Source: Octopus vulgaris (Eukaryota). Taken from it: a DNA stretch of 64,000 nucleotides. Under the pieces are notes generated by a model. The model had not been told where the DNA came from, made no database searches, and saw only the letters and a program-made list of their open reading frames with translations. A program made the translations under genes and the position numbers. Where the stretch lies: the NCBI GenBank assembly GCA_951406725.2, contig OX597826.1, forward strand, positions 12,028,001 to 12,092,000, written 5' to 3'. Shown in pieces: positions 3,635 to 56,913 of this stretch (the stretch's first letter is position 1; each line of letters starts with the position of its first letter).

Positions 3635-3774
3635 ATTGCAGCTTGAAATAAAAGAATACTGTAATGACGATTACTACGGTTCAACATGCGATGTCCATTG
3701 TATAGAACGAGATGATGACGATGGCGGCCATTATACATGTGATAAACATTCAGGAAAGAAAATCTGTAATCCAG
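3635..3774 (+). CDS. Exon A of Delta/DSL-EGF Notch-ligand-like gene (most of the DSL domain); upstream exons not identified in window
   Basis: ttag|A...CCAG|gtaagc. Translates LQLEIKEYCNDDYYGSTCDVHCIERDDDDGGHYTCDKHSGKKICNP(G), matching the DSL pattern C..YYG..C...C..RDD..GHYTC...G.K.C..GW.G..C. Phase-1 donor. Confidence 0.92.
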
Positions 3775-3800
3775 GTAAGCGAGAGAGAAAAAGAAGGGTA

Positions 3801-15900: not shown

Positions 15901-17190
15901 ATAACTAATATAATAAATGCGAAAACTAATTTCTGTGTATCAGTGTGTCACACTTTGACCCCTTCTCTCACTATTCCATGTCACTTCTAGTAATGCGCAT
16001 GTTGCGGGGAAATTAATGATAGGCATAGAGACGGTGGGGCGGTGGCGGAGAGACAGAGGGTAAAAGAGAGGGAGACAAAGAGAGACAAGATGGCAGTAAA
16101 CTAACACACTAAACGAACATTTAGCCTTTTCATGATGATAATGGGGTGATAGTAATGGTTTGAGCTGTATTTGTGATAGAGGCGGAGGCGGCGGTGATAA
16201 TGCTGATGGTGGTATCCGAGGCGGTCAGGGATGAAGGTGAGAATAAGTGATGTGAAAGACAGTGGTGATGGTGGTAGAGAGGAAGGCGGCAAAGTCAAAG
16301 GTATTGATGATGGTGGTGTCAGAAGTCTGAAATGTGGGTGAATGGCAGATGTGGTGGCGTTGGCGCTGGTACTATTGTTTGTCAAGCAGCTTTGCAATAA
16401 ATTCCTAGTCGACGAATCATATATGCAAATATCAGTGTGTCAGTGTGTCACACTTTTTAAACCTTATTCTCTCAGGCCGTTGCCCAACATATCATACCAT
16501 TTTGGAATCAGGCCGACTCGATGAGTAAATTAAAAACATTCCGGGCCGAATCCGGACACGCAATCCTGAAATTTTGGATTCCCGAATTTTCATTACGGGG
16601 GTACAAAAAGTAAAGAAAAATTAAGGGGAGATAAAGAAGCAAAGGGAGGTAAATCCCCTTACTTTACTTACTTTACCAAAATGCGTTTACACCACACCAG
16701 AACTAGTTTAGTTTGGAATTGAAAATCAATCGAGATAGTTGCACCCTACTTCTATTTACGTTTTATTTATTTTCTTAAAATCTAACAAATAGGGCGAGTA
16801 TGTTCTTGATATTTTTGCACCCAGGGCCGGACACCTCTGGAAGAGTTATTTAGTTGTTTTAAAGCTAATAAGTGAATATGCTTCAAGAGGAAACGGCTGC
16901 AATTTTACCGTACCTAGCTGCATTATATACATACGTACTAGACACATACACACACACACACAAACAAAAACACATACGCATACACACACACACAAACTAG
17001 CACACACAAACACACACATAGACAGACACACTCATATTCATGAGGAGATGACACATCGACAATATATTTCTCCATATCTCAAAAACGAAATAGTGTTGAA
17101 ACTATAGAAATCATTAGAAACCATCTCTTAATGCCTTTTTCTTGCTAGTAATATTAATGAATATAAAACGAATATGATATTTAATTTTTT

Positions 17191-17311
17191 TTATTTAAAA
17201 TATGTCTATAAATTTTTAATTATTTAAAATATGTCTATAAATTTTTAATTATTTAAAATATGTCTATAAATTTTTAATTATTTAAAATATGTCTATAAAT
17301 TTTTAATTATT
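17191..17311. repeat. 29-bp minisatellite x4
   Basis: TTATTTAAAATATGTCTATAAATTTTTAA at 17191, 17220, 17249 and 17278. Confidence 0.95.
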
Positions 17312-17349
17312 CGGTTATCACTTCATGATAGCGGCATCCCCCCTTTTTT

Positions 17350-17562
17350 TTTATTTACGAAATTTCTTTTAACTTTAGCAAAAGGGGCAAGGGTGATCTT
17401 GATATTTGACACCCTGGGCCGGATAACTCTGTGTTCTGTTTAGCTGCTTATATAAGCTGCAGGATATTCAGGTTCGTTAGAACATCGGTGAAATCTTTTG
17501 TGCTGCATAGTTATGTCAGCTTCTCTATTCAAATCTCACAGCGGTCAAAGAGACTGGCATAT
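17350..17562 (-). other. Nested orphan gene, non-coding 3' exon with poly(A) signal
   Basis: Acceptor ctttgtttacag ending at 17563; AATAAA at 17355-17350. Acceptor and AATAAA are kept at equivalent positions in the paralog (exon start 31776; signal 31584-31579). Confidence 0.6.
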
Positions 17563-17700
17563 CTGTAAACAAAGAAGGTAAAAGTTATGTAAAACCTGGG
17601 GGTATACGTAACATATCGATAAACATTTTATCAGATGAAATAGTTTATTGTGTGGTTTTAAAATTAGAAAAGAAAACCATGGAATCATGACCTACCTGAT

Positions 17701-17852
17701 CTAGCCAAGTTTTACGGACATGGTCACATGACCATTTACAGAATAAACGATGATCTGTACTACTTGATGCAAACCGGAACTGGCTTGCATGAAGATGTCG
17801 GATACAATAAGTGGAATACAAGGTGGGATCTCTTCGGTCTGGCTACCATCAT
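17701..17852 (-). CDS. Nested orphan gene, coding exon 4 (to stop)
   Basis: tacatag|AT...; DDGSQTEEIPPCIPLIVSDIFMQASSGLHQVVQIIVYSVNGHVTMSVKLG*, TAG at 17703-17701. Donor cag|gtaggt 5 nt after the stop (exon ends 17696). Confidence 0.7.
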
Positions 17853-18267
17853 CTATGTAGTAACAAATAAATAAAATGAATAAATAAATAAAGTAACAAA
17901 TAAATAAAAATTCATGTTATACCCTAAAAGAAACATGGAAAAGGGATTTTGAGAAAAGTATGTATGCATGAACATATGTATCGCAACGACAGTAAGTTAT
18001 CAATGCATAGATATATCCCGATCATTCACTACAAGCTGTAAGTTTGTTCTCAAATAGTACTTGGCGGTATTACATTCATGATTGAGTCGGCCATGCTATG
18101 GTAGTCGTGTTTTCGCTCAATAAACACACACAACGCCCGGTCTGGGAATCGAAACCGCGATCCTCTATGTCTAAGTACCATATTTAAATATTCAGAAAAT
18201 GCAAAACAATCGAGTAGGTAGTTTATAATATATAGTAAAAAAATGAGAAAATGCATTAATAACTTAC

Positions 18268-18327
18268 CAAACTCTGATGGTTCGTGAAATTCTTCATCAA
18301 AGGAATCGGTGTCGGTCGAGGGTAAGT
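18268..18327 (-). CDS. Nested orphan gene, coding exon 3 (60 nt)
   Basis: ttttcttttccag|AC...TTTG|gtaagt, phase 1-1. DLPSTDTDSFDEEFHEPSEF. Confidence 0.78.
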
Positions 18328-18494
18328 CTGGAAAAGAAAACAGACAATGGATAAAACTATTACTACAAACAAAAACAAAAAATACGAAAAGTAAAGATAA
18401 CTCAGACTCTCTTACCAACAAACGAAAATATATATTAATGCATAACAGAGTATATTAATTTGTTAACTGAAGTTTAAGAAGGTCGAATATTTAC

Positions 18495-18542
18495 CTGGAC
18501 AAGATGTTCGCTCAAACTGGTCGTAGTCAATGGGGGTAAAAT
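18495..18542 (-). CDS. Nested orphan gene, coding exon 2 (48 nt)
   Basis: tttcag|AT...CCAG|gtaaat, phase 1-1. DFTPIDYDQFERTSCP. The paralogous exon at 33729-33776 differs by several synonymous changes in this frame. Confidence 0.8.
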
Positions 18543-18944
18543 CTGAAACCAACACAAATATAATTATAGAAATCGTACATGTATGTGTGAGTGAAGTTGA
18601 TGAAGTTTGAGGGCGATTTTGGTTGCTATATCTAGCAAGTGTAGCCCCGCTCAAATTTTTTATGTAGGTATATATGCATGTATGAACCGGCGATATGTTG
18701 GAAAATCTTGTTAAATAACTTGTTTAAGTTTGACTACATAGAAATCTGAATAACTCGTTTAAGTTTGACTACATAGAAATAGCAGCTAAATCTCATAAAG
18801 AGAAATAGAGAAACTGAGAGATGTGTGAGATTGATAAATACATAATCAGATAGATAGAAAAATAGGTAGATGTAGAGAGACGTTAAACAATGCAAAGCTC
18901 ATTTGTTTTATGCATATATTTTAAACAATTTTAGCAAAACTCAC

Positions 18945-19173
18945 CCCCAATACGAGGAATTATAGCAGATTGATTGAGATTTCTCGGGAAATCTTCTTCT
19001 GTAGTTGTCATCAAGGAGATGTCTGATGATAACGGTGAAGAAAAATCTGTGTCATCTTCCAAAGGGTCTTCAAGTTTCGGTCGTCGTACGCAGGGTATTA
19101 ATCTTGAGAAAAAGTTTCGAGCTCCTTTACGAAGTCGTTTACGGAAGCCCGGGCGGTGTAGAACGTCGGACAT
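18945..19173 (-). CDS. Nested antisense orphan gene, coding exon 1
   Basis: Acceptor ttttaatag ending at 19184, ATG at 19173, donor GGGG|gtgagt (phase 1). MSDVLHRPGFRKRLRKGARNFFSRLIPCVRRPKLED...IPRIG. Confidence 0.75.
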
Positions 19174-19250
19174 TTGGTTATATCTATTAAAACAAACAAG
19201 CTATTAGCAAATATATTAACGCAAGTCAATGGATTGTAATAGTAACCTAC

Positions 19251-19320
19251 AAGAAGTTAACTGTTAGCAATGGCCAAAGTATCGCAAATGAATGAGGGAA
19301 AATATCGCGTTTTTCTGACT
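19251..19320 (-). other. Putative 5' UTR exon of the nested gene (start approximate)
   Basis: Donor gtaggt at 19250, 67-nt intron with TGCTAAT branch-like motif, acceptor ending at 19184. Confidence 0.45.
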
Positions 19321-19325
19321 TCAGT

Positions 19326-19341
19326 ATTATGACGTCATAAT
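19326..19341. promoter_or_regulatory. Perfect 16-bp palindrome ATTATGACGTCATAAT containing a full CRE (TGACGTCA)
   Basis: Read directly; lies just upstream of the putative first exon of the nested gene. Confidence 0.55.
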
Positions 19342-19541
19342 TGTGATTTAACCGTTCAAAATTACGTTTTATATTTCAATTAATTTATTACTTAACAATA
19401 AGCAGATACAGAAAGCTAAAACACATTCAAACACAGTTACACACACAAACATACAGACGGATAGAATACAATCGTTGATGCATATATATATATACATTCG
19501 ACGTTGCGCACATAAAATTTCATACATACAAAATTTTCAGC

Positions 19542-19625
<84 letters not shown>

Positions 19626-19795
19626 CCTATCTATCTATCTATCTATCTATCTGCTTGTGTGTGTGTAAGTCTGCGTGTGTGTGAATTTTGGGGGGTTGCT
19701 TCAGTATTATATTAACATAAACAAATTAGAATTGGAGTCAGGTGTATTTGGTTATGACATATAGTTCTTCATGAATTGTATACTCGTATCTACAT

Positions 19796-19830
<35 letters not shown>

Positions 19831-20052
19831 ACTTTAGGAAGAAATGGTTTTTGTATAAAAAAGATGAATTTGATAAGAAGATGGTATATTTCTATTTCCT
19901 TTTGGTTCAGCTACTGTCCGGATATGTCGTTGGTTTATATATATTAAGATAATGTGCGATTTGAGAGATATACATTTGTTATTTCCCATCAGGTACAGCT
20001 ACTATTAAGTGGAGCATATGTTTCTGCATACCTACCTACTTACCTACATATA

Positions 20053-20083
<31 letters not shown>

Positions 20084-20379
20084 GTACATATATACATACA
20101 TACACAAATACATACATACATACATATATATACATGCATACATACATACATACATACATACTCACACACATACATATATACATACATATACACACATACA
20201 TACACACATCCATCCATCCATCCATCCATCCATCCATCCATACATACATACATACATACATACATACATACATACATGGTGGCTGCCCCTCGTTATCGAG
20301 TATGGCCATTGCACGAAGCTCAATCAGTGTTGTTATCGTGCAATGCCTGTGCAAGAAGATTTTTTTTTAAAGTGAGGAA

Positions 20380-20805
20380 AGGCTTTGCACTGAGTCAATC
20401 CCACTTACTAAGCAACAACAGCTATAATCCGAAAAGAAGAACAAGTCAACATCATCGGTAACCACTGAGCCGCAGGTTTTATGTCGGAGTTATCCCAGTT
20501 ACCTGAGTTACCTTCTCCTAGAAGGATGCCCTAACAAAGGCTAGGAGTCCATCACCCCCAATGATTTAACCGCGCGATCGGGTATTCAGTCCGATTATTT
20601 TTATGTTCCCGCGCATGATACAGCCTTAAGACGTTTATTGGATGGCCGTTGACTCTCAAGAGTACCTCCGCCCTTTGACGGGTTTTCTTTTTCGTCCCAC
20701 AGGGAGTCCAATAAACACCCTCCTCACCAAGCAAGCTTGGTGGGGTTGCCGGTTTAGTCACCGACGACCCGACCATGCAACAGGTTGTACTGGGTTACAT
20801 GTTAC
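20380..20805 (-). mobile_element. Probable RTE LINE 5' region fragment
   Basis: GC-richer insert in (ATAC)n containing CTCCTAGCCTT...CTAGGAGAAGGTAACT, recalled from RTE 5' ends (not verified). Confidence 0.4.
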
Positions 20806-21650
20806 TAGTAGCATACATACATATATACATACATACATATATACATACATACATATATACATACATACATATATATATATACATACATACATACATATAT
20901 ACATACATACATACATACGCAAAAGAACAGGTTGTAGTTTCTGGGAGATTTGTCTGCAATTTCATTCGGATCTAGCGGCAATGTTACTATCTCTTCGGCA
21001 TATATGTCTGTGTGTGTGTGTGTGTGTGTATGTGTGTGTGTATGCGTGTGTATGTGGGTTTGTCTGTTTGCACTTACATACACACACACACATACGTGCG
21101 CACACATACAAGTGTGTGTGTCTGCCTTATGTGTGTGTGTGTGTGTGTGCCTGATGTGTGTGTGTGTGTGTGTTTGCAAATGCTTTTGCGACCTGCTAAT
21201 CTCGAATATCTTGCACAATTTGACGGTCGTTTGGAGCTGAAATTCTTCGTTTAAGAGTGTTCTTCCTAGTTTTGTTAATCTAAATACTTCATAAATTAAA
21301 GGCAGAAATCTAAATGTATCGTCTAGATGGAGTAACAGCACATTTCTCATTAGTTCATCAGAGATAATTTAATCTTACTAATTTTTGAAATAGTTGTGAC
21401 ATACGTTGGGAAAAAGGCTTCAAGCAACACGTACGATTACCTTTCCCGTCCTCAGATCATCAGATCTGTTTTACTTTACTTGTATTTTATTGAAGTATTT
21501 ATAGGAACATTCAACATCATGGATGGCCATTCACTCCTCATCACTATACCTTTTATATAGACTTCCTCAGGATTATCCTTTCTATTTATTACGTGGGGTC
21601 ATTTTCTATTCCCGACGTTATCCTTCATATGTAGGTAATATCTTGATAGC

Positions 21651-31359: not shown

Positions 31360-32260
31360 ATTAGGAGACGACACATCAAATCTTTATTTTCCTATATTTC
31401 AAAAGATAGATTAGTGTTAAAATTATAGAAACAAAAAGGAAAACAACTCTAATGTCATTTTTCTGCAGGTAATATTGATAATGAATATAAAAGAGTAAGA
31501 GTTTTAATATTTTATTAAAAATATATTCATGAATTTTCAGTCATTCGGTAACCTCTCCATGATAGTTGCATCCGTCTTTTTATTTATGAATGTTTTCTAC
31601 TTTAGCAAAAAGGGCAAGGGTGTTCTTTATACTTGACACTCAGTGCCGGATAACTCTGATGGTGTTCTCTTCTATGTCGCTGGATTTTCAGGTTCGTTAG
31701 AACGTTAGACAAACGTTTTGCTCTATAGTTATGTCAGCGTCTATACTCAAATCTCACAGCAAAGTTCTTGGTATATCTGTAAAAAAACATATCGAGAAAT
31801 AGATCATGTCAGACCAAATACTTTAATGTGTTGTTTTAAAATAACAAAAGGATGAAATCATGGTTTACCTGATCTAGTCTAGTCTTACATGGTCACATGA
31901 CCTTTACAGAAAAACGATGACCTGTGCAACGTGATGCCTCATGAAACTGCCTTGCATCTAAATATAGGATACAGCAACTGGAATACAAGCTGGGTCCTCG
32001 TCGTTTTGGTTTCCAACATCTTCGGAGTAACAAATAAATAAAATAAAGTAACAATTAAATAAAAATTCATGTTATACATTAAAAGATATATGGAAAAAAT
32101 ATTTTGAGAAAAGTGTATACGCATGAATATAATGTATCGCAAAGACATTAAGTTATCAATATATAAAGCCGTGAATACGGTTTTAAAAACACCAGCACCG
32201 ATTTTCATACGGTAATGGGGTGAGGAACAAACAGAAAAAAGATACAGACAGGCAGATAGA

Positions 32261-32319
<59 letters not shown>

Positions 32320-32917
32320 CCCCCCCCTTCCTGTCGTTCACCCGCGACGATACTTCCGCTCTGACTATCATTCTGGCCTGGCCTTTCAAGGTAACGGACG
32401 ACATTCTTCCTTCTCCTCTCGTCGTTCACAAAAAATTCTGCGTTCGCAATACTTGTTTTCATTCGGCGTCAACAGCCCTTCTTATCTTGTTTTTCCTGTC
32501 CTGTTTTTTACTGTTTATATTTTGTACTGTCGTTATTGTCCTGTTTTTTTACCATTTTTTTTACCATTTTTTACCCCTCTGCGAAAAGATCTCAGAATTT
32601 TAATTGATTTGCTTTTCGCAGGAAGGAAAGTTTCTTGTCGAAGATACGTCTCGCTTTTATCCTTCGAAACGTAGAGTAGATGAAACCGTAGCGACTGAAG
32701 AAGGGTTTTTTTCTTTGTGTTAATTGTCCTGTACTCCATTTTTTTGTTGTTTTTAAAAAAATTTCCAGTTCCTTTGGTTTGTGTCTATGTTTTCGTTTCT
32801 CTTTGTGTTCGACGTCCCTTTGGTGTCCTGTACTCGTATATGCGTGTATATGTACATGTAGAGGTAGGTACGTACATATATGTTTATATATATGCATATG
32901 TTTTATTTCATTTATTA

Positions 32918-32964
<47 letters not shown>

Positions 32965-33145
32965 GTGTATGTATGTATAGATACAGAACGGGTTTCTTTC
33001 AGTTTCGGCTTACCGAATTCACTCATAATATTTGGTCGGGCCGAGGCTACGGTAGAAGACAGTTGTCCAAGTTGCCAGACAGTGAGATTGAACCCAGAAC
33101 CTTTTAACTGGGAAGCAAACTTCTTACCACACCACTATACATGTA

Positions 33146-33233
<88 letters not shown>

Positions 33234-33245
33234 TATAGACATAAT

Positions 33246-33289
<44 letters not shown>

Positions 33290-33333
33290 CACGTGCATTC
33301 ATACAAGCATACATGCATACATACACACGCACG

Positions 33334-33371
<38 letters not shown>

Positions 33372-33905
33372 TATATATATATGTGAATGTTCATATGTGT
33401 GCGTCTATGAATGTGTGATATTTGAATGTGAATGATTTTTAAAAGATAGAACATTACTCTAGATTACAATGTTTAGTAAAATGAATTAGAAGGTGCATTA
33501 ATTATAACTTATTAAAATATAATGGGGCGTCAAGTAAACTCTTCACAAGTATCCGTGTGGATCGAGGATAAGTTTGCAAACAAAGAACGGACAAAATATA
33601 ACAACATTACTACAAAAATGACACAAAATCTCGCAGAGACGAAGACACTCGAATATTATGATAGACATAATTCAATATGATAACATGTCAGCTAAAATTT
33701 TAGAAGGTCATTTATGATTATAGTTGACCTTCAGTGGAAGTTCGTTCAGACTGGTCAAAGTCACGAGGTGTAACATCTGAAAATAACAAAAATAATTACA
33801 TAAATCATACATGTGTGTTGGTGTCTGTGTGTGTGTGTGTATTGGTGTCTGATGACGTTTAGGAATGATTTGAATTTTTATATCTGTCGGCTTAGCACCG
33901 CCAAA
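31360..33905 (-). pseudogene. Decayed or truncated genomic duplicate of the nested orphan gene
   Basis: Aligns with 17040-18660 including introns. Exon 33776-33729 (DVTPRDFDQSERTSTE) is intact. The 60-nt exon homolog has acceptor AG->AA (33575-33574) and an in-frame TGA. Exon 32019-31869 has an early TAG (31960-31958). 3' exon from 31776. Interrupted by TE and microsatellite inserts. Confidence 0.75.
32985..33140 (-). mobile_element. SINE family A 5' fragment
   Basis: Diverged head. Confidence 0.75.
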
Positions 33906-40580: not shown

Positions 40581-42414
40581 CTATATATGTAACCTTTTAC
40601 TATGGAGTGAATATCATGTCTTTAAGCAGAGTATTGTATATTTCGATACGCACATTACCGACCAGTAAAATGTTTCTAAGAGGTGTAGAATACAGAGTAT
40701 TAAACCAGGTCTCATAACATATGTTTGTAAAACATCTTTCGTGTATATTATAGATTTCACACATGAAATAATTTAGATTTAGTATTGCTTATGAAACATT
40801 CGTTAAAGATCAGTGAACGGCTTAGAAAAAATTCTGCTTTGCAGAAAAGCCGAATTGTACGTAAATTTTATATTTACCAGAGGGTAGATTCTGCTTTTCA
40901 GATTTGTGGCAGAAACAGAATATAACCAACTGATGAAATATTCACTACTGAATCTTCAACCACTTCATCAGCATCCTATTAGTATCTATCGTCCGTGTAA
41001 AATACATTACTATATTATTAGCAATCTTGTTTCACTAAATACTGGTTTTGGATTCATTGTATCATATTCCTTTCAATAATGTGTTATTTCTCCTTGCATT
41101 CATTAAACAGAAGTTAGTTATGTTGGCATTAAGAATACTTTTTGATGGAAAAATATGAAGATAATGCTAATACAAGTTTTTAACTATTTTGACTGAGTAG
41201 TAGCTAAATCTAAGATTACTATCGACTTCAGATAGTCTGGAACAAACAGTAATCCTATTAGCATATGTGAAGAAGATATCGAATAAGCAAGAGTCTTAAA
41301 AATTAATACGGATAAAAATATGTTGAAACCGTTTCCTTGACTGAAAATAGTGTCAATGTAATAAAAAATTTAAAAAATAATCTGACGGTGATTTGTTAGA
41401 GCAGGAGTGGCCCCAAAGAGGTTATGCAAATACTTATATGTATTCGTATGATATTGCAGTATTAACACCCTGAAAATAGTTTACCGTATTTTCATGGTTT
41501 CTGCATCTTTGAAGCTTAATTTATTCTGCCATCAGAACTCTGTACACTTTATAACATGGTTGCTGTACAGTGTCTGTAACAGGACGGATACATTTGTCCT
41601 AACTGGAGTATGCAAAGGTATGCTGATAATAGATAGAAAGATGATTGGAATAAACATATAAATACATTCTTATGTAATATTTGTGACATGTTAGGTATGA
41701 TAGATAAAATTCATAAGCAAAGACTCAGTTACTGGAAGCTAAACGTATCGCTCCAGGCGCACCAAACTTACAAAGACAAGATTATCGAATTACTTTAAGG
41801 TGGTGTTGAAGAGGGTGATCGTCAAGAAACAAATGGTAATTCGACAGAAAAAAGGTTTAGCAAGGTCAGGGCGATAGAGATAAATAGAATAAAGGGTGTC
41901 TTATCTAGAAATGTAGAAGAGGGGCTGAAGAAAGTCATAGCAACCGTCGTGCTCGCGATGATATTGCTCCTTCACCAATTCTTCATAGCGAAACGGGAAG
42001 GCCGCATTTTGAGAGCTAAAACATGTGATTTAAGGCACGAAAGGACGAAAACCACTCGATAGTACCGAGTAGTGAAGGTGCAAAGTGGTAACAAAAACAA
42101 CAATTTAGACATTGGTGAATGTTATTCGACTTCATATAGATATATGTAGCTTTTCAACTGTTCAGGGCGAGTGGCGGGCTGGAACGCTGGATGGATTTTA
42201 GTAATCTTCATCGACAACCGGCCACCCGGCCACAACTCTCTGTGAGTGAGTCGCGGTGATGTAGCGCTGCTAAGAAAGGACTCAATCAAATAGAGGCATA
42301 GCAAAAGATTGACGCAATAGTAATAAAACCAAAAACAAACACTAATAAAATGATAAAGGATTAAAAATATCCAACATTGTTTTAACTCATTCAGTATACT
42401 TGAATATATTTCAG

Positions 42415-42537
42415 GATGGTCAGGTGAATCATGTCAAAACAATATTGACGACTGCGTGGGAAACGGTTGCAAGTTCGGTTCAACATGTGAAGATAAACTC
42501 GGATTTTATACCTGTACCTGCCCAGCAGGTATAACAG
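42415..42537 (+). CDS. Exon B of DSL-EGF gene (end of DSL + EGF1)
   Basis: tttcag|GA...ACAG|gtatg, 123 nt, phase 1-1. (G)WSGESCQNNIDDCVGNGCKFGSTCEDKLGFYTCTCPAGIT(G). Supplies the GWxGxxC that completes exon A's DSL domain across a 38.6-kb intron. Confidence 0.92.
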
Positions 42538-42571
42538 GTATGTTGATTTTATTAAAAGAAATAATATTTTT

Positions 42572-43861: not shown

Positions 43862-46800
43862 AGTGTGTGTGTGTGTGTGTGTGCAAGTGTGTGTGTTTGA
43901 GGTTTCTGTGCGTATGTATTTGTGTGCGTGTGCATATGTTCCTCAGTGCATGTATATCATTTGTATGCTACACAGAGTAGTACCAGAGTGAAGTTTGAGC
44001 CGACACGAAAGCATGAATATCAATATGGTTAATTATCTCACCACCAGATTCTTTGTAATGTTCTTGTATACAATCCAATTAATCATCCTATCAAGTAAAA
44101 GGATATCTCTTGGGTGCTGCTTAACAAGCTGAGCAACGAACAGCTTCTGTTCTCAGTAACACATAACTGCATACACAGCTAATATTCTTAATGTTCCAAT
44201 GGTCTTAGCCTTTAACGGCTTCATTGAAAGTAGACTGGAATACTACACTTGTGAGGCTATTAAGTAAAATCAACAAATGTAACAGCGGTTTTCATTGGAG
44301 AGTTGAAAAACTTGTCTGAGGCTCTGAAAATTGTCTTGTCACAGTTTCATCTTTGGCTAAAGCATTGAAACATATTGAGAATATGTGACCTACCACAGCC
44401 AAAATTTAATGACTAAATGATGTGGAAGTCAGGTGGGGAAGGCTTTCATTAACGTTCTTATGAGCATAAACTATGTATTGTTGATGTTAGTTTATTCTTT
44501 CCGATTGTGCAGAACCACAGAAGATTGTTCTCTTACGAATTCAAAAGTCAGTGTATTTGGCAAGGATACCCATAGCCGTTTAAAAATGCAAGGTGTAACT
44601 TTAGCCAATCACTGTAGTTATACACTACAGTGGTAACAAGTTGGTGCTGTTATTTTATGTGCTACACGAACTATGACAGAATATGTCTGCAATCAAATGC
44701 ATTCTAGTGAATTATACCTAATTTTTTATCTAGATATATTCTACCTTGGATTTCTATTATCCAGTAGTGTATTCTTTATCAAGACCTTAGTTTGTTGCTT
44801 TAGATTTTGTTGCCATCTCTAGCAGGGGATAAGATCACGATGATATTCGCCTGTGAGCTTAGTTGTTAATTGACGATTTGTATGATGCATGCATGCCTTA
44901 AGACTAGGCCATAAAACTTATGTGTTCCTTATAAGGGAACACGTCGGCAATGATGACGAGATATCAAGGAAATGTGAAGCAATGATTTGTCGGTTGCTAG
45001 GTCGTCACTACATCCTCTCGATGCACCATAACACCGATTGAAACTTTCTGGCACCCGTAGATATTTTCATTCAGACATTTCCTCATTTCATTATATTCTC
45101 CTATGGCTTTCAAGCTCATATAATTTCCAAGTTATATCGAATTTAGCAATGCCTATTGTTATTGTTCTTTTTTTAAGACAAGATTAGGAAGCAAAAATAT
45201 TTCTACGGAAACAACAGAGTTATTTACTTAGACAATAATTGTTTTAATATATTAGTTATAATACTTTACAAGGTATTATAGACTGCTACAGATTGAGCAA
45301 GCTAGCAATACAACGGTTATATAAGAAATCAATAACCTTTTGTATGAACACTAACTTATAATTACTTCATCAGTTTTAAGATGGTAACAGCTGTAGCAAA
45401 TCTGAACTGCCACAGAAATATTTGCTGCCGAAATGGACGACAAACTGTGTGCGATAGCAATTTCTATGTTAGTAATGGACAATTTCAATTGATATATACA
45501 GGCGATAATGATGATAATCTTCATTCTAAATTTCACTATTTCCGTTTAACCCATTCAATATCAAAGTATACATCGTTGTCTGGAGCGAAACATACAGGAA
45601 GATATATTTGTTCTGTATATAGTTCCTTTTAGAAGTGTATAATTTGGCTGCGTGCACGTCAGCATCTGTTATTGAATATTAATCTATGCTCAAATGGTTA
45701 TAGAAACGTTTAATAATAAGATATTCACGTTGAAGAAAATAGAGAATGAACGAAAAGCAGGATCGAAAAAAGATAGCGAAAAGATCTAGACGATTTTCGA
45801 CATAAACAGAGGGCCTCAAATATAGGCGGGTGGAGTTAGTTGTTTAGATCATCCCAGTATTTGACTGGTACTCTGCTGCATATGTTCATGTATGTTTTCG
45901 TAAGTTTTCCTGAATGCTACTCAGCAAAATCCAAAAGACTATCCAGCTAGTATATCAGCCTAAAAATAAATAAGATCTATCAAGTGAACAAATGAACCAA
46001 GCACCAGACTAGTCAAAGACTACGAAGCAGGGGTGCACAGGAAAGAGTAGACCTAGTCATTTCTAAAAGTCATCTTTACAAACTTGCACAGCCAATATTT
46101 ACCGCAAATGTGACTACCAATCTGATTCCGTCGTAGGATATCTTACACTGGTAGATAAAACTAACTAGAAAAGGAAAAACACTTGAAAAAAACACACACA
46201 TATGCTTGCAGTTACGTAGGCGTATTCTCTCTCCTATTATTGTAGTAGAATGCAATTTGCTGTCATTTCCAACTTACACGTCTCTTATCTGCATTTTCGA
46301 CTTCAGCTCTTTTCAGATATTTATCGCACGCTATATCTGTCTGCTATTTCGCAACTTGTTCTATTTTATTTTCCTTGTTCAGGAATTAGTTACAACGGTT
46401 TAAATTATATATTTTCATCCACTATATCTCATTTAGAAGCAATCAATAACTAAAATACCTTTCTTTTGGTTGGTGACGTTACTAGGGAAAGCGATTCTGG
46501 TGTAAGGGGCCGAAACTGCAGCAATCCTCAATCGATTGCTGATGAGAGGCAGTATTCTGCTTAAATTCACATACATAAATATATACATACATGCACGCAT
46601 ATACATTTGGTTTGCAAGATTCTTGAGGTGAATTCGTGTGTTGAAAGAGATACAATTGAAACTTGGGTGGTGGGAATTATGCATCTAATAATAAACACAC
46701 GCACTGGTTTGGTCCTTTATTGTTATTGCTAGTTAATGGGTTAGTTACTCCACTCACAAAACTATCGATCAGCTGTCTTTTTACTAGTATTTCTAACTCC

Positions 46801-53140: not shown

Positions 53141-56100
53141 TAATATTTTAAGTATAGGAAAGAATGGAGCTGAGCGAAGATTTAACAAAATTCCTTTATT
53201 TTATTTTCGACATAAACTTAGATAAACTTAGATATGTTTCGACCAAAGATTGGTCCAGGCCATGTCTAACTTAATAGCACCACCTGATAGGATTATTCGA
53301 ATCCTGTTTAAGTCAAGTTTTGTTCAAGTAGTGAGTTCTTGTTGGGTGAGTTGTAAGTTTTGTTCAAGTAGTGAGTTCTTGTTGGGTGAGTTGTATCCAA
53401 TTATGGGTGGCTTATCTGGTATTCTTTGAAGGAATCTATCCAGACTCTGTTTAAAGTTGATGGGATCCTTTTCCTCTTTGATCTCCCTCGGGACAATGTT
53501 AAATAGGGCAGGGCCTGTTGAGGAAAAGAAATTATGTTGCAGTGTACATGTATGTTGTGATTCTTGAATTGGGCAGGGGACGTATGGCCCGTGGTCCAAG
53601 TCTTGGATGAACCTTGAAGCTAATGTTTAGGTCGTTTGGGCAAAGTTGGCGGTATATTTTCCACATCGTACAAATGATGTACCGCTCACGGCGACGCTGG
53701 AGGGAGTAAAGTTTCAAGGCTTTAAGGCGATCCCAATAATCGAGAGCAGCCATGCCTTCAATTCGTTTAGTGAGTGCCCTCTGGGGTGACTCAATTCTGG
53801 AGATGTTTTGTCTTGTGTGGGAGACCACAGTGGGCAGCAGTATTCAAGGTGTGGCCGTACAAAGGAGGAAAAAAGTGGTATGATGACACCTTGTTCTCTG
53901 GACCGGAAAGTTCTTAAGATCCAGGAACTCATCCTACGAGCTATATCGACCTTCTTGTTGATGTGTGCACTCCAACTGAGATCGTCATCAACAATTACAC
54001 CCAGGTCTCTGATATTGTTAGAGGCTGTGAGCGGTTCCCCTGAAGGAAGAGAGTATGGTTGTTTTAGTGAGGAATTTCTTCCAAAATGCATCAGCTCAAA
54101 TTTTCCCTCATTCAGTTGCATTTTGTTTCTGTCTGCCCATTGACTCACAGCATATAGATCAGACTGGAGTTGAGTTCGGTCTGCTTCTTCATTGACGATT
54201 TGCTGGAGCTTAGTGTCATCAGCAAATATTTTCACTTTGCAGTAATGTACGACACTGGAAAGGTCGTTTATGTAAATTATGAAGAGTAGCGGACCCAAAA
54301 CAGTCCCCTGGGGAACACCGCTGGTGACTTTTGCTGGGTTTGAGTGGACTCCATCAACTACAACATGTTGTGTTCTATTCGCCAGGAAATACTTAATCCA
54401 GTGTAGAACTTTTCCACGGATTCCAACATTTGCCAATTTTGAGAGTAGGATATTATGGTCTACCCTGTCGAACGCTTTACTGAAGTCAAGATATATGACG
54501 TCAGAGTTCGAACCTGTTCCCAAGGCTTTGAGTACATCTTCAATGTGGTGTAAGAGCTGTGTTAGACAGTCCTGCCACAGCGAAAGCCATGCTGATTTGC
54601 ATTTAGGAGTTTGTGGGTCTCCAGGAAGTCAGCTATCCTTGATCTTAACACTCTTTCAAACACTTTAATGATGTGGGAGGTGAGTGAGATTGGGCGATAG
54701 TTGACTGCGAGGGATCTGTTTCCCTGTTTGAAAACCGGGATGACCGACTGGGATAGAAACTGTTTCGGTATATAACCTGCGTCTAACGAATTTCTCCAGA
54801 GGTTGGTCAGAGGGACTGCAAGTTGGTGTCTACATTCCTTCAGGAGACTAGCGGGAAATCTATCAGGGCCTACAGCAGAGTAATGTTTGACCTCATTTAT
54901 TGCTGCTACGATGTCAGTGGCAGTGAAGGTTATGTCTGAGATTTTGTGTTGGGAGTCAACTCCGTTCGTTTCTCTTACGTCAATAAAGTGGGAACACTAA
55001 AGACAGAGCAGTATTGTTTCTGCAGTATTTCTGCCATTTCTTTAGCATCGTGTTGGGGAATGCCGTTATCATCAATCAATGGCCCAATGGGTGAGACAGT
55101 GGTTCTATGCTTATTTGCATAAGAATAGAACACTTTTGGGTTCTGTTTGATGTTTTTGATTACCCATTGTTCCTCCACAGCTCTTTGATTTTCAATGGAG
55201 GTTTTCATGTTGGTCTGCAGATGAAGTTTTTCCAGCTCTAGTCTTTTCATTGTTGTTGAATGTGGATGTTGTGTGTGGGAATATTTTAATTGGTTGATTT
55301 TTTTGTTGAGTCTTTTGATGCGCCTGATGAGTGTTTTTTTCTTTTTAGGGAGCCGGTTTCTGTTTGTGTTAGTAGATTTCGTGGGAGTGTGTTTAGAGCA
55401 TGTATAGGTGACAATGTTTTCAAAGTGCTGCCACGCGGTCTCAATATGAGAGGAATTGAGAGTAAAAGACCAGTCGATGGAAGACAGATCCTTTCTGATT
55501 GTTCCCCAGTCCGCTTTGTGGAAGTTTATGTTGTCAAATGGGTGCCATGGAGTGGGATTGGCTGGTTTGGTTTTTATATGTCGGGAATTAAGATTGCAGA
55601 GTACCATGTCGTGGTCTGAGAGGAGAGTTTTTTCGACTGAAATACTGTGAACGTAGCTAGAGTGATTGGTCAATACCAGATCCAAGATCGTTTTATTCTG
55701 TCTCGTTGGTTCGAGCACTAGCTGAGTCAGGAAATACTCATCCATTAGATTAAAGAGCAGTTCTGCTGCTGCTCTATCTGATGTAGAGCACTTGCCTAAC
55801 TTCAGAGTATTTGTGGGCCAGTTCACATGAGGGAGGTTAAAATCATCACCCATCACTAGTATGTTTCCGGAGTGGTACTTCCGAAGGAAGGACTTGACTT
55901 TGCTAAGGCACTCTTCAAAGTACTTTAGAGGTGCCTGGGGAGGCCTGTAAAGACCAACAATGGTTATGTCCTTGGCTTTGTTGTATAGTGATACCGATTC
56001 ACAGTAGCCATTGGAAAATATGTCCTTGGCATCAAGTGAAAAGGAGTCATGGATAAAGATGGCTGTCCCTCCCTTATTTCGGTCTGTGCGATCCGCACGA

Positions 56101-56913
56101 ACAATGGTGAAATCTTTTATTTTCACCTCTGCGTCCATATGGGTGTTGTTCAGGTGAGTCTCGGTAAGGATAAAGAAAGGGAAGCAATGTGCCATTTCGG
56201 CAAGCCAACTCTCTATATATGGGATCTTCCATTTTTGGGCAATAATTGATGGGTTGATGCCACGTACATTTAACAGGAATGTCGAGGTAAGGGAAGTTGG
56301 TAATGGGTGAGTGGTCCTTGTGATTTGCATAGATGGTTGGTGATAGCTCGCTGGATCTCCTGGCTTAGGTCGGCCTTCATATTTTCTAGGTATGTCAGTA
56401 AAAAAGAGTTACTTGTTTGGTTTGCCACTTGGTCAGAGGATACATATTTCATGTTGGCGTTATTTGGTGTTTTTTCATACGTTGTTTGATTGTAGGAGGG
56501 GAAACGTGGTTGTATTTTGTTCTTGTTGTTGTCCTAGATTTCCTCTGTTCTTGTTTATATTTATTCTGTGATCGTTTTGTGCCCTTCAGATGGTGGTGAT
56601 TGCATTCTGGGTTCAGGCACATCCTTTGTGAGACAGAAGTTTGGCACAGTTTAGGATGGAATAAGGTGCATCCATTGCCTTTTATGCATCCGTATTTCGG
56701 ATCAGAACCATGGATTCTGTGTATGTTTCGAAGTCTGCAAAATTCCTAATTCCGAATGAATAAGGAGTCCATATGCAGCTTTCTCTTCATATGGACTCCT
56801 TATTCATTCGGAATTAGGAATTTTGCAGACTTCGAAACATATGTCGAAAATAAAATAAAGGAATTTTGTTAAATCTTCGCTCAGCTCCATTCTTTCCTAT
56901 ACTTAAAATATTA
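53141..56913. repeat. 126-bp perfect inverted repeat with 12-nt loop; left arm split by the LINE
   Basis: 53141-53214 joined to 56724-56775 is the exact reverse complement of 56788-56913. Confidence 0.9.
53215..56721 (-). mobile_element. 5'-truncated, frameshifted LINE (CR1/Jockey-like group): ORF1 Cys/His fragment, APE endonuclease, RT
   Basis: APE motifs NVRG, LTETHL, YRPP, GDDFN, LDLVLTN, SDHD (56330-54975). RT motifs YLDFSKAFDRVDH, SGVPQGTVLGPLLF, FADDTK, VRPHLEYC (54523-53714). 3' tail (TCTAAGTTTA)2; 2-bp TA duplication at the junctions. Confidence 0.93.

Follow-up and report, generated by a model that had tools for sequence, protein, structure and literature searches.

A spliced antisense gene nested in an octopus Delta-like intron belongs to an octopus-restricted multigene family and may encode a small membrane spacer

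Within a very long intron of a Delta-like gene of Octopus vulgaris, the opposite strand carries a real, expressed and spliced protein-coding gene, and this gene belongs to a multigene family, dispersed in the genome, that was found only in octopuses by the searches made. The family appears to be undescribed and combines a new small domain, a common promoter motif and a modular linker. Tentatively, we propose that its product is a small peripheral-membrane spacer or scaffold that serves a single tissue, of which the male germ line is the most likely. All positions are those of the window, the 64,000-nt stretch of O. vulgaris DNA that was analysed.

The nested gene is transcribed and spliced from the minus strand

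The gene spans 17350-19395 on the minus strand, with a provisional 5′ end. Coding exon 1 (18945-19173, 229 nt) encodes a predicted basic amphipathic helix at residues 10-29, Cys28 and the start of an acidic linker, which continues through exon 2 (18495-18542, 48 nt) and exon 3 (18268-18327, 60 nt), both symmetric and in phase 1. Exon 2 also occurs in paralogs, and exon 3 is skipped in one O. bimaculoides isoform. Exon 4 (17696-17852, coding from 17852 to 17701) encodes a predicted three-strand beta-meander and ends in a TAG stop, with a splice donor 5 nt past it. The coding introns measure 402, 167 and 415 nt, and the four coding segments (229, 48, 60 and 152 nt) join across GT-AG, phase-1 junctions into a frame of 162 aa, as the initial annotation had described; of this gene the list of open reading frames indeed holds only fragments. 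A 133-nt GT-AG intron in the 3′ UTR (17563-17695, minus) precedes a terminal non-coding exon (17350-17562, minus), into which contigs reach as far as 17406 and which has an AATAAA signal at 17355-17350.

Splicing was read from contigs of four public runs (X1, X2, X3 and X5), none of them recorded as RNA, and every one of the four contains at least one of the joints. In X5, contigs of depth 405 skip 18328-18494 and 17563-17695, where CT..AC on the plus strand reads as GT-AG on the minus, and intron 1 is skipped at the same depth with one changed letter; exon 2 thus has X5 joints on both sides. Unspliced intron pieces in that run reach a depth of 40-57. The intron-1 joint recurs in X3 and X1 and the 3′-UTR joint in X2, at depths of 2.6-4.4. 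For intron 3 the joint itself is unlisted, and we infer its removal because the 138 letters that precede exon 4 in a 452-nt X5 contig make up 60+48+30, the summed lengths of exons 3 and 2 plus 30 nt from exon 1; depth bins agree with cover of exactly 18268-18327, the span of exon 3. The X5 contig matches exon 4 of the nested locus without a difference and its 3′ exon with 5, against 4 and 35 for the nearest paralog, and so derives from the nested locus or its orthologue. Depth at the locus is uneven (405-611 in X5 vs 2-4 in X1-X3), and 15 of the 24 public runs listed contain next to none of the gene's sequence words, which does not imply silence.

Genome searches returned no intronless copy of the kind a retrocopy would leave, and paired exon-1 and exon-4 matches are separated by introns. 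The identical exon chain, in frame, is found in the O. bimaculoides proteins P0002 and P0004. We conclude that the nested gene is a real, expressed and spliced minus-strand protein-coding gene.

Introns had been described in both untranslated regions, and here the two ends part ways. The 3′ intron is confirmed by its joints in X5 and X2. The candidate 5′-UTR intron (19184-19246, 63 nt, minus) has a branch-like motif and an acceptor AG, with a weak donor (GTTACT); the contigs of the four runs contain no joint for it, one unspliced contig crosses 19246-19184, and the acceptor AG is absent from the paralog at 13.376 Mb. We regard it as unconfirmed.

Several repeats lie in or near the transcribed region. 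A 29-bp AT-rich tandem repeat of about 4-5 copies (17178-17322) sits just beyond the poly(A) signal, intron 3 holds a fragment of a very abundant short repeat (18107-18166, depth in the thousands), and an 84-nt minus-strand segment at 16761-16839 matches the end of the 3′ exon at 74%, perhaps the remnant of a further partial duplication.

The host intron divides a DSL domain and holds a second, broken copy

In O. bimaculoides the orthologue of the host is LOC106880385, a protein with DSL and EGF domains. Most of the host's DSL domain is encoded by an exon at 3635-3774 on the plus strand (Pfam DSL, E 6e-9; tblastn), and the end of the domain, together with the first EGF repeat, by an exon at 42415-42537 (plus). 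Host residues 171-217 map to 3636-3776 and residues 217-258 to 42414-42539, with the Pfam DSL match at residues 179-225. Because these residues fall on exons that end at 3774 and start at 42415, the intervening GT-AG, phase-1 intron of 38,640 nt (3775-42414, plus) cuts the DSL domain, and the nested gene lies wholly within it in antisense, in agreement with the initial annotation.

The same intron contains a second copy on the minus strand (31575-33790), made up of exons 2-4 and the 3′ exon, with damaged splice sites, stops and frameshifts; neither exon 1 nor a promoter belonging to it was found within the 64-kb window.

The host itself has an unusual architecture (3635-62268, plus; L078 1558-1713), with a signal-like N-terminus, DSL domain and EGF repeats, and a last exon of 2 kb that codes for a region rich in Ser and Thr and for a basic tail rich in Tyr and Asn. 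In the O. bimaculoides orthologue the top three 19-mers by hydrophobicity all lie at the N-terminus, so the host may be a secreted ligand that has no membrane anchor. One O. bimaculoides host isoform omits the exon that completes the DSL domain (P0005 vs P0011). A later host intron carries a LINE retrotransposon with endonuclease and reverse-transcriptase frames recognised by Pfam (53324-56745, minus), and an open frame with a Cys-rich stretch and no Pfam match lies in a host intron at 45348-45632 (plus).

A dispersed family with intact, decayed and converted copies

Iterated genome searches placed at least 18 related loci on nine O. vulgaris contigs (C3, C8, C11, C13, C18, C20, C21, C26 and C27). 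Promoter and exon 1 are present at 14 inspected loci, and four further loci have exon 4 with no exon 1 found; these counts are lower bounds, and two more promoter-like matches lie outside them. The gene had been called an orphan, and as a description of a lone gene this does not hold, given these loci and relatives in two other species. The nested gene is a member of a multigene family whose copies are scattered.

Five loci have intact full frames: the nested copy itself, a tandem pair of copies at a distance of 1.3 Mb, the C8 copy and the C27 copy at 2.05 Mb (P0014). The C26 copy has an open frame in which exon 3 is missing and whose end is altered relative to its O. bimaculoides counterpart P0013. 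For the exon-4 copies on C27 at 2.04, 2.44 and 6.57 Mb, neither exon 1 nor promoter was found in the flanking sequence examined. In a tree built from promoter and exon 1, the three C13 near-copies fall together, and six copies that are either broken or have no last exon found form a well-supported clade. Members of this clade lie on C3, C11, C13 (7.29 and 29.9 Mb), C18 and C20, mostly with stops, frameshifts or no start; for the 7.29-Mb copy on C13 a 126-aa protein with no beta domain is predicted (P0018).

Across introns and exon 4, the copy at 13.376 Mb matches the nested copy at 92-100% of positions in 50-nt steps, whereas its 3′ exon is about 82% identical to that of the nested copy and 89% to that of its tandem neighbour. 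Because identity to the nested copy is high through exon 4 and drops in the 3′ exon, we interpret it as a recent conversion or a chimeric duplication. It is one of a tandem pair of paralogs on C13 (13.374-13.393 Mb), whose exons are joined in the database model CAI9731604 (P0010). Duplication at the DNA level, gene conversion and decay probably account for the turnover of the family.

Such scattering raises the question of a selfish or mobile element, whether a piece of a transposon or a family that spreads by duplication through germ-line drive. The dispersal over nine contigs, the clade of six 5′-only or broken copies and the recent sequence exchange between copies 1.3 Mb apart all fit this reading. 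However, copy number is low (8-9 matches per DNA search, as lower bounds), introns are kept, subfamilies are shared with O. bimaculoides, 16000-21500 contains no terminal inverted repeats except microsatellites, and Pfam gave no transposon domain for the family. We therefore regard a selfish element as very improbable. Since most family copies are far from the host, nesting is probably incidental, and the gene's place in the DSL intron likely reflects where a copy landed and not a link to Notch signalling.

Relatives are found in three Octopus species

In protein searches, all relatives with a species name came from O. vulgaris, O. sinensis or O. bimaculoides. A profile search of 1.84 billion representatives gave 10 matches, eight of them named Octopus proteins and two unnamed Logan proteins, both close to O. 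vulgaris paralogs; no named match outside Octopus was returned from these representatives. By the searches made, which covered proteins and the O. vulgaris genome, the family is restricted to octopuses, which bears out the earlier suggestion of a lineage-specific protein. The subfamilies are common to O. vulgaris and O. bimaculoides.

Members include LOC106880393, LOC106880408, LOC106880409, LOC106879479 and LOC106883218 in O. bimaculoides, LOC118765758, LOC118765860 and LOC118761726/28 in O. sinensis, and CAI9731591, CAI9741596 and others in O. vulgaris; all family entries in the databases are unnamed predictions. P0002 of O. bimaculoides is identical to the nested protein at 118 of 161 positions (29/32 in the N-terminus, 58/88 in the linker and 31/41 in the C-terminus). 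In the protein tree, where several forks are weak, the O. bimaculoides copies of C13 type do not pair one-to-one with those of O. vulgaris.

The O. vulgaris database model of the nested locus lacks exon 2 and departs early from exon 4 into unrelated sequence (10591 and 9542), and the structure given above corrects it. The models P0001, P0007 and P0008, from O. vulgaris and O. sinensis, are wrong or extend into introns. Twelve of the family ids and accessions, and those of the host and the partial copies, are absent from the full-text literature searched. Family ids are likewise absent from the readable supplements searched, among which a gonad paper uses other gene ids and includes no full gene table. 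The literature search found no paper on an octopus gene nested in a Delta-like intron.

A conserved upstream block carries a full CRE

An alignment of 12 copies and an nhmmer profile delimit a conserved upstream block of about 220 nt (19176-19395, minus), likely the promoter and 5′ UTR. Within it, a 14-bp palindrome at 19327-19340 includes the full CRE TGACGTCA at 19330-19337, 164 nt ahead of the ATG; across the family the distance from the full CRE to the ATG is about 150-165 nt. The CRE tends to be kept where the copy is complete, with an exact TGACGTCA in all six copies whose first and last coding exons occur in order, compared with one of six others. The motif occurs twice in the 64-kb window and 11 times in the 294 kb of loci examined, six of those at family promoters. 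The motif is conserved, and the family genes are candidate CREB/CREM targets. A precedent is offered by CREM-tau and CREs in mouse spermatids, and only 13% of CREM sites contain a full CRE (PMC3091680).

Both ends of the protein are under purifying selection

The dN/dS of the nested copy is about 0.56 against the 13.389-Mb copy and about 0.37 against the C26 copy. Among paralogs, pN is below pS in 28/28 pairs over the first 32 codons and in 27/28 over the beta domain, 55 of 56 comparisons that are non-independent. These comparisons show protein-coding constraint with purifying selection on both ends.

Constraint of this kind weighs against a further alternative, in which the transcript is an antisense regulator of the DSL-EGF host and its reading frame is secondary. 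Two copies do lie antisense in the intron that splits the DSL domain, and the O. bimaculoides isoform that drops the exon after this intron would suit such a role; yet 16 of the 18 loci are outside the host, and Rfam had no match in 15000-36000. A primarily antisense function thus appears extremely improbable.

Three parts can be recognised in the protein, in line with the basic amphipathic N-terminus with a Cys, the acidic middle and the hydrophobic, beta-like C-terminus first noted for it. The nested protein (pI 4.5) carries a charge of +10 in residues 1-33 and -23 in residues 34-121. At least the first 29 residues align without gaps in 12/12 family proteins, and Cys28 is present in 11 of them, the twelfth having Cys24. 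Hydrophobicity in the family has a period that peaks at 100 degrees (column-shuffle p 0.015), and the HeliQuest-type D of 1.38-2.75 in all 12 proteins lies above the threshold of 1.34; of ten helices taken one by one, only two do better than shuffles at p<0.05, and that of the nested copy is not among them (p 0.18). No 19-mer of the nested protein exceeds a KD value of 1.15, and it has no transmembrane segment. Membrane targeting and palmitoylation, which the initial annotation had raised, are supported as predictions only, since the helix period and Cys28 are conserved in the family.

The N-terminus might instead be a cleavable mitochondrial presequence and the mature product an acidic mitochondrial protein. 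The nested copy has features that would suit such a targeting signal, namely an Arg-rich amphipathic helix, a single acidic residue among residues 1-30 and no transmembrane segment. Presequences usually drift in sequence, whereas this N-terminus is the best-conserved part of the protein, with a fixed length and a fixed Cys, and 6/12 members have two acidic residues in the first 30. We judge mitochondrial import unlikely.

The 88-residue linker contains 26 Asp/Glu and 20 Ser/Thr. Its exons, symmetric phase-1 units of 48-108 nt, are duplicated in the C8 copy, missing from the C26 copy and skipped in P0003 and P0008. FFAT- and LIR-like motifs are present in the nested copy; the FFAT-like ones recur in 0/6 relatives checked, and the motifs were therefore rejected.

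AlphaFold models of the nested protein, built on 9-14 related sequences, give a helix at residues 10-29, a low-confidence middle and strands at 127-136, 141-152 and 155-162; whole-chain pTM is 0.33, and the exon-4 domain modelled alone has a pLDDT of 89. In the model, strands 1 and 2 of the beta-meander have hydrophobic residues on both faces, which suggests that the meander is buried against itself or a partner.

An acidic linker beside a small beta core also calls to mind a chaperone for histones or sperm basic proteins that works in the manner of nucleoplasmin, with an oligomerising beta domain, a binding linker and a nuclear N-terminus. Along with these two features, the nested copy has a basic cluster that could serve nuclear entry. 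It is this cluster that is lost in distant paralogs, whereas the hydrophobic face and Cys28 are kept, and a chaperone role seems distinctly unlikely.

A proposed membrane spacer and its tissue

The proposed spacer would work as follows. Residues 10-29 would lie as a basic amphipathic helix on an anionic, cytosolic membrane face, where S-acylation of Cys28 would fix them. The acidic, Ser/Thr-rich linker would form a disordered, phosphorylatable spacer of adjustable length, varied by gain, loss or skipping of the short phase-1 exons, and the last 37 residues, a predicted three-strand sheet with two hydrophobic faces, would have to pack on themselves or a partner. The conserved CRE may drive a common tissue-specific programme. 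We have somewhat better than even confidence in a membrane anchor formed by the helix and Cys28, on the basis of their conservation.

As to the tissue, we give the male germ line about an even chance. Several features lean this way, although CREs are used in many tissues: depth is uneven between runs, database models are poor in two species, a CRE is conserved, copies turn over fast and the gene is nested. Mammalian nested genes are often testis-expressed and young (PMC11694760), and a second source is cited for the bearing of nesting and copy turnover on the germ line (PMC13343718).

The same membrane-anchored protein could act elsewhere, for example as a GAP-43/MARCKS-like product that is CREB-inducible in neurons, gland or blood cells. 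A full CRE at about 150-165 nt ahead of the ATG would fit that role, as would an acidic, predicted disordered protein with a basic N-terminal anchor and a Cys. Against it, indirectly, the faulty models P0001, P0007 and P0008 hint that the gene is absent from commonly sampled material; the O. vulgaris annotation drew on developmental Iso-Seq and adult bulk RNA-seq (PMC10700109). We consider expression in such tissues a minor possibility.

If the germ-line reading of the proposed spacer holds, the family is a candidate for octopus-specific sperm biology and a clean example of gene birth, conversion and death in a cephalopod genome. A more elaborate version, which is frankly speculative and improbable as a whole, would make the family a palmitoylated membrane coat of an octopus-specific sperm structure, driven by the CRE, in which beta-meanders polymerise and acidic cassette micro-exons set the spacer length in the way of a molecular ruler, with a germ-line arms race behind the scattering, homogenisation and decay of its copies. 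Nested genes and lineage-restricted families are common kinds and the function is one that we infer, so we consider the value of the case to be moderate.

Comparison with known families and systems

The protein had been assigned to no family, and our searches agree. Against Pfam, the exons and 14 aligned members gave only two sub-threshold single-member matches, and four further paralogs gave none. A sequence profile against the PDB had one match at E 0.45, the ESM Atlas returned no usable match for the whole protein or for residues 118-163, and Foldseek returned nothing at E<=0.001 for the whole-protein or the exon-4 model. Searches for a transposon or known family that would absorb the gene produced none, and named relatives were confined to Octopus. 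VIA-align gave no chain at Z>=5, and nucleoplasmin is absent among the matches listed. The top row for the beta-meander, tied with unrelated rows, was the COMM domain of COMMD9 (6bp6_B; Z 4.3-4.5, rmsd 3.5, 45 residues aligned); identity is 0-2%, and the model lacks a helix after the strands.

The predicted anchor has known parallels. The N-terminus of RGS4 is an anchor made of an amphipathic helix and an S-acylated Cys. In RPE65, an amphipathic helix with a palmitoylated Cys anchors the protein to the membrane (PMC9585964). The likeness of the nested protein to residues 107-125 of RPE65 (PMC9585964) and to plant CBL2 (10.1101/2023.01.17.524453) consists of a basic amphipathic helix and an adjacent Cys. 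RPE65, CBL2 and RGS4 are unrelated to it in sequence and carry enzyme, EF-hand or GAP domains, whereas the nested protein has an acidic linker and a 37-residue sheet. The family does have the features expected of such an anchor, as predicted, with conserved helical amphipathicity and a Cys beside hydrophobic and basic residues.

GAP-43, MARCKS and CAP-23 are small, acidic, mostly disordered proteins with an acylated N-terminal region and a basic lipid-binding stretch. The nested family resembles them in being small, acidic and largely disordered, with a stretch that looks basic and lipid-binding and an acylation that is here predicted. It differs in having no N-terminal Gly or double Cys and in its folded C-terminal beta domain, and P0002 had no Pfam match at E up to 1 that would point to homology with them.

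Among cephalopod-restricted families, reflectins, suckerins and histidine-rich beak proteins are likewise lineage-restricted, multigene and devoid of outside similarity (PMC9068888). Those families form tight clusters and encode repeat-rich structural proteins (PMC9068888), whereas the nested family is dispersed, multi-exon and unrelated in sequence. Cephalopod-restricted families and nested genes are thus kinds already known, and what is new here is the octopus family itself and its three-part design.
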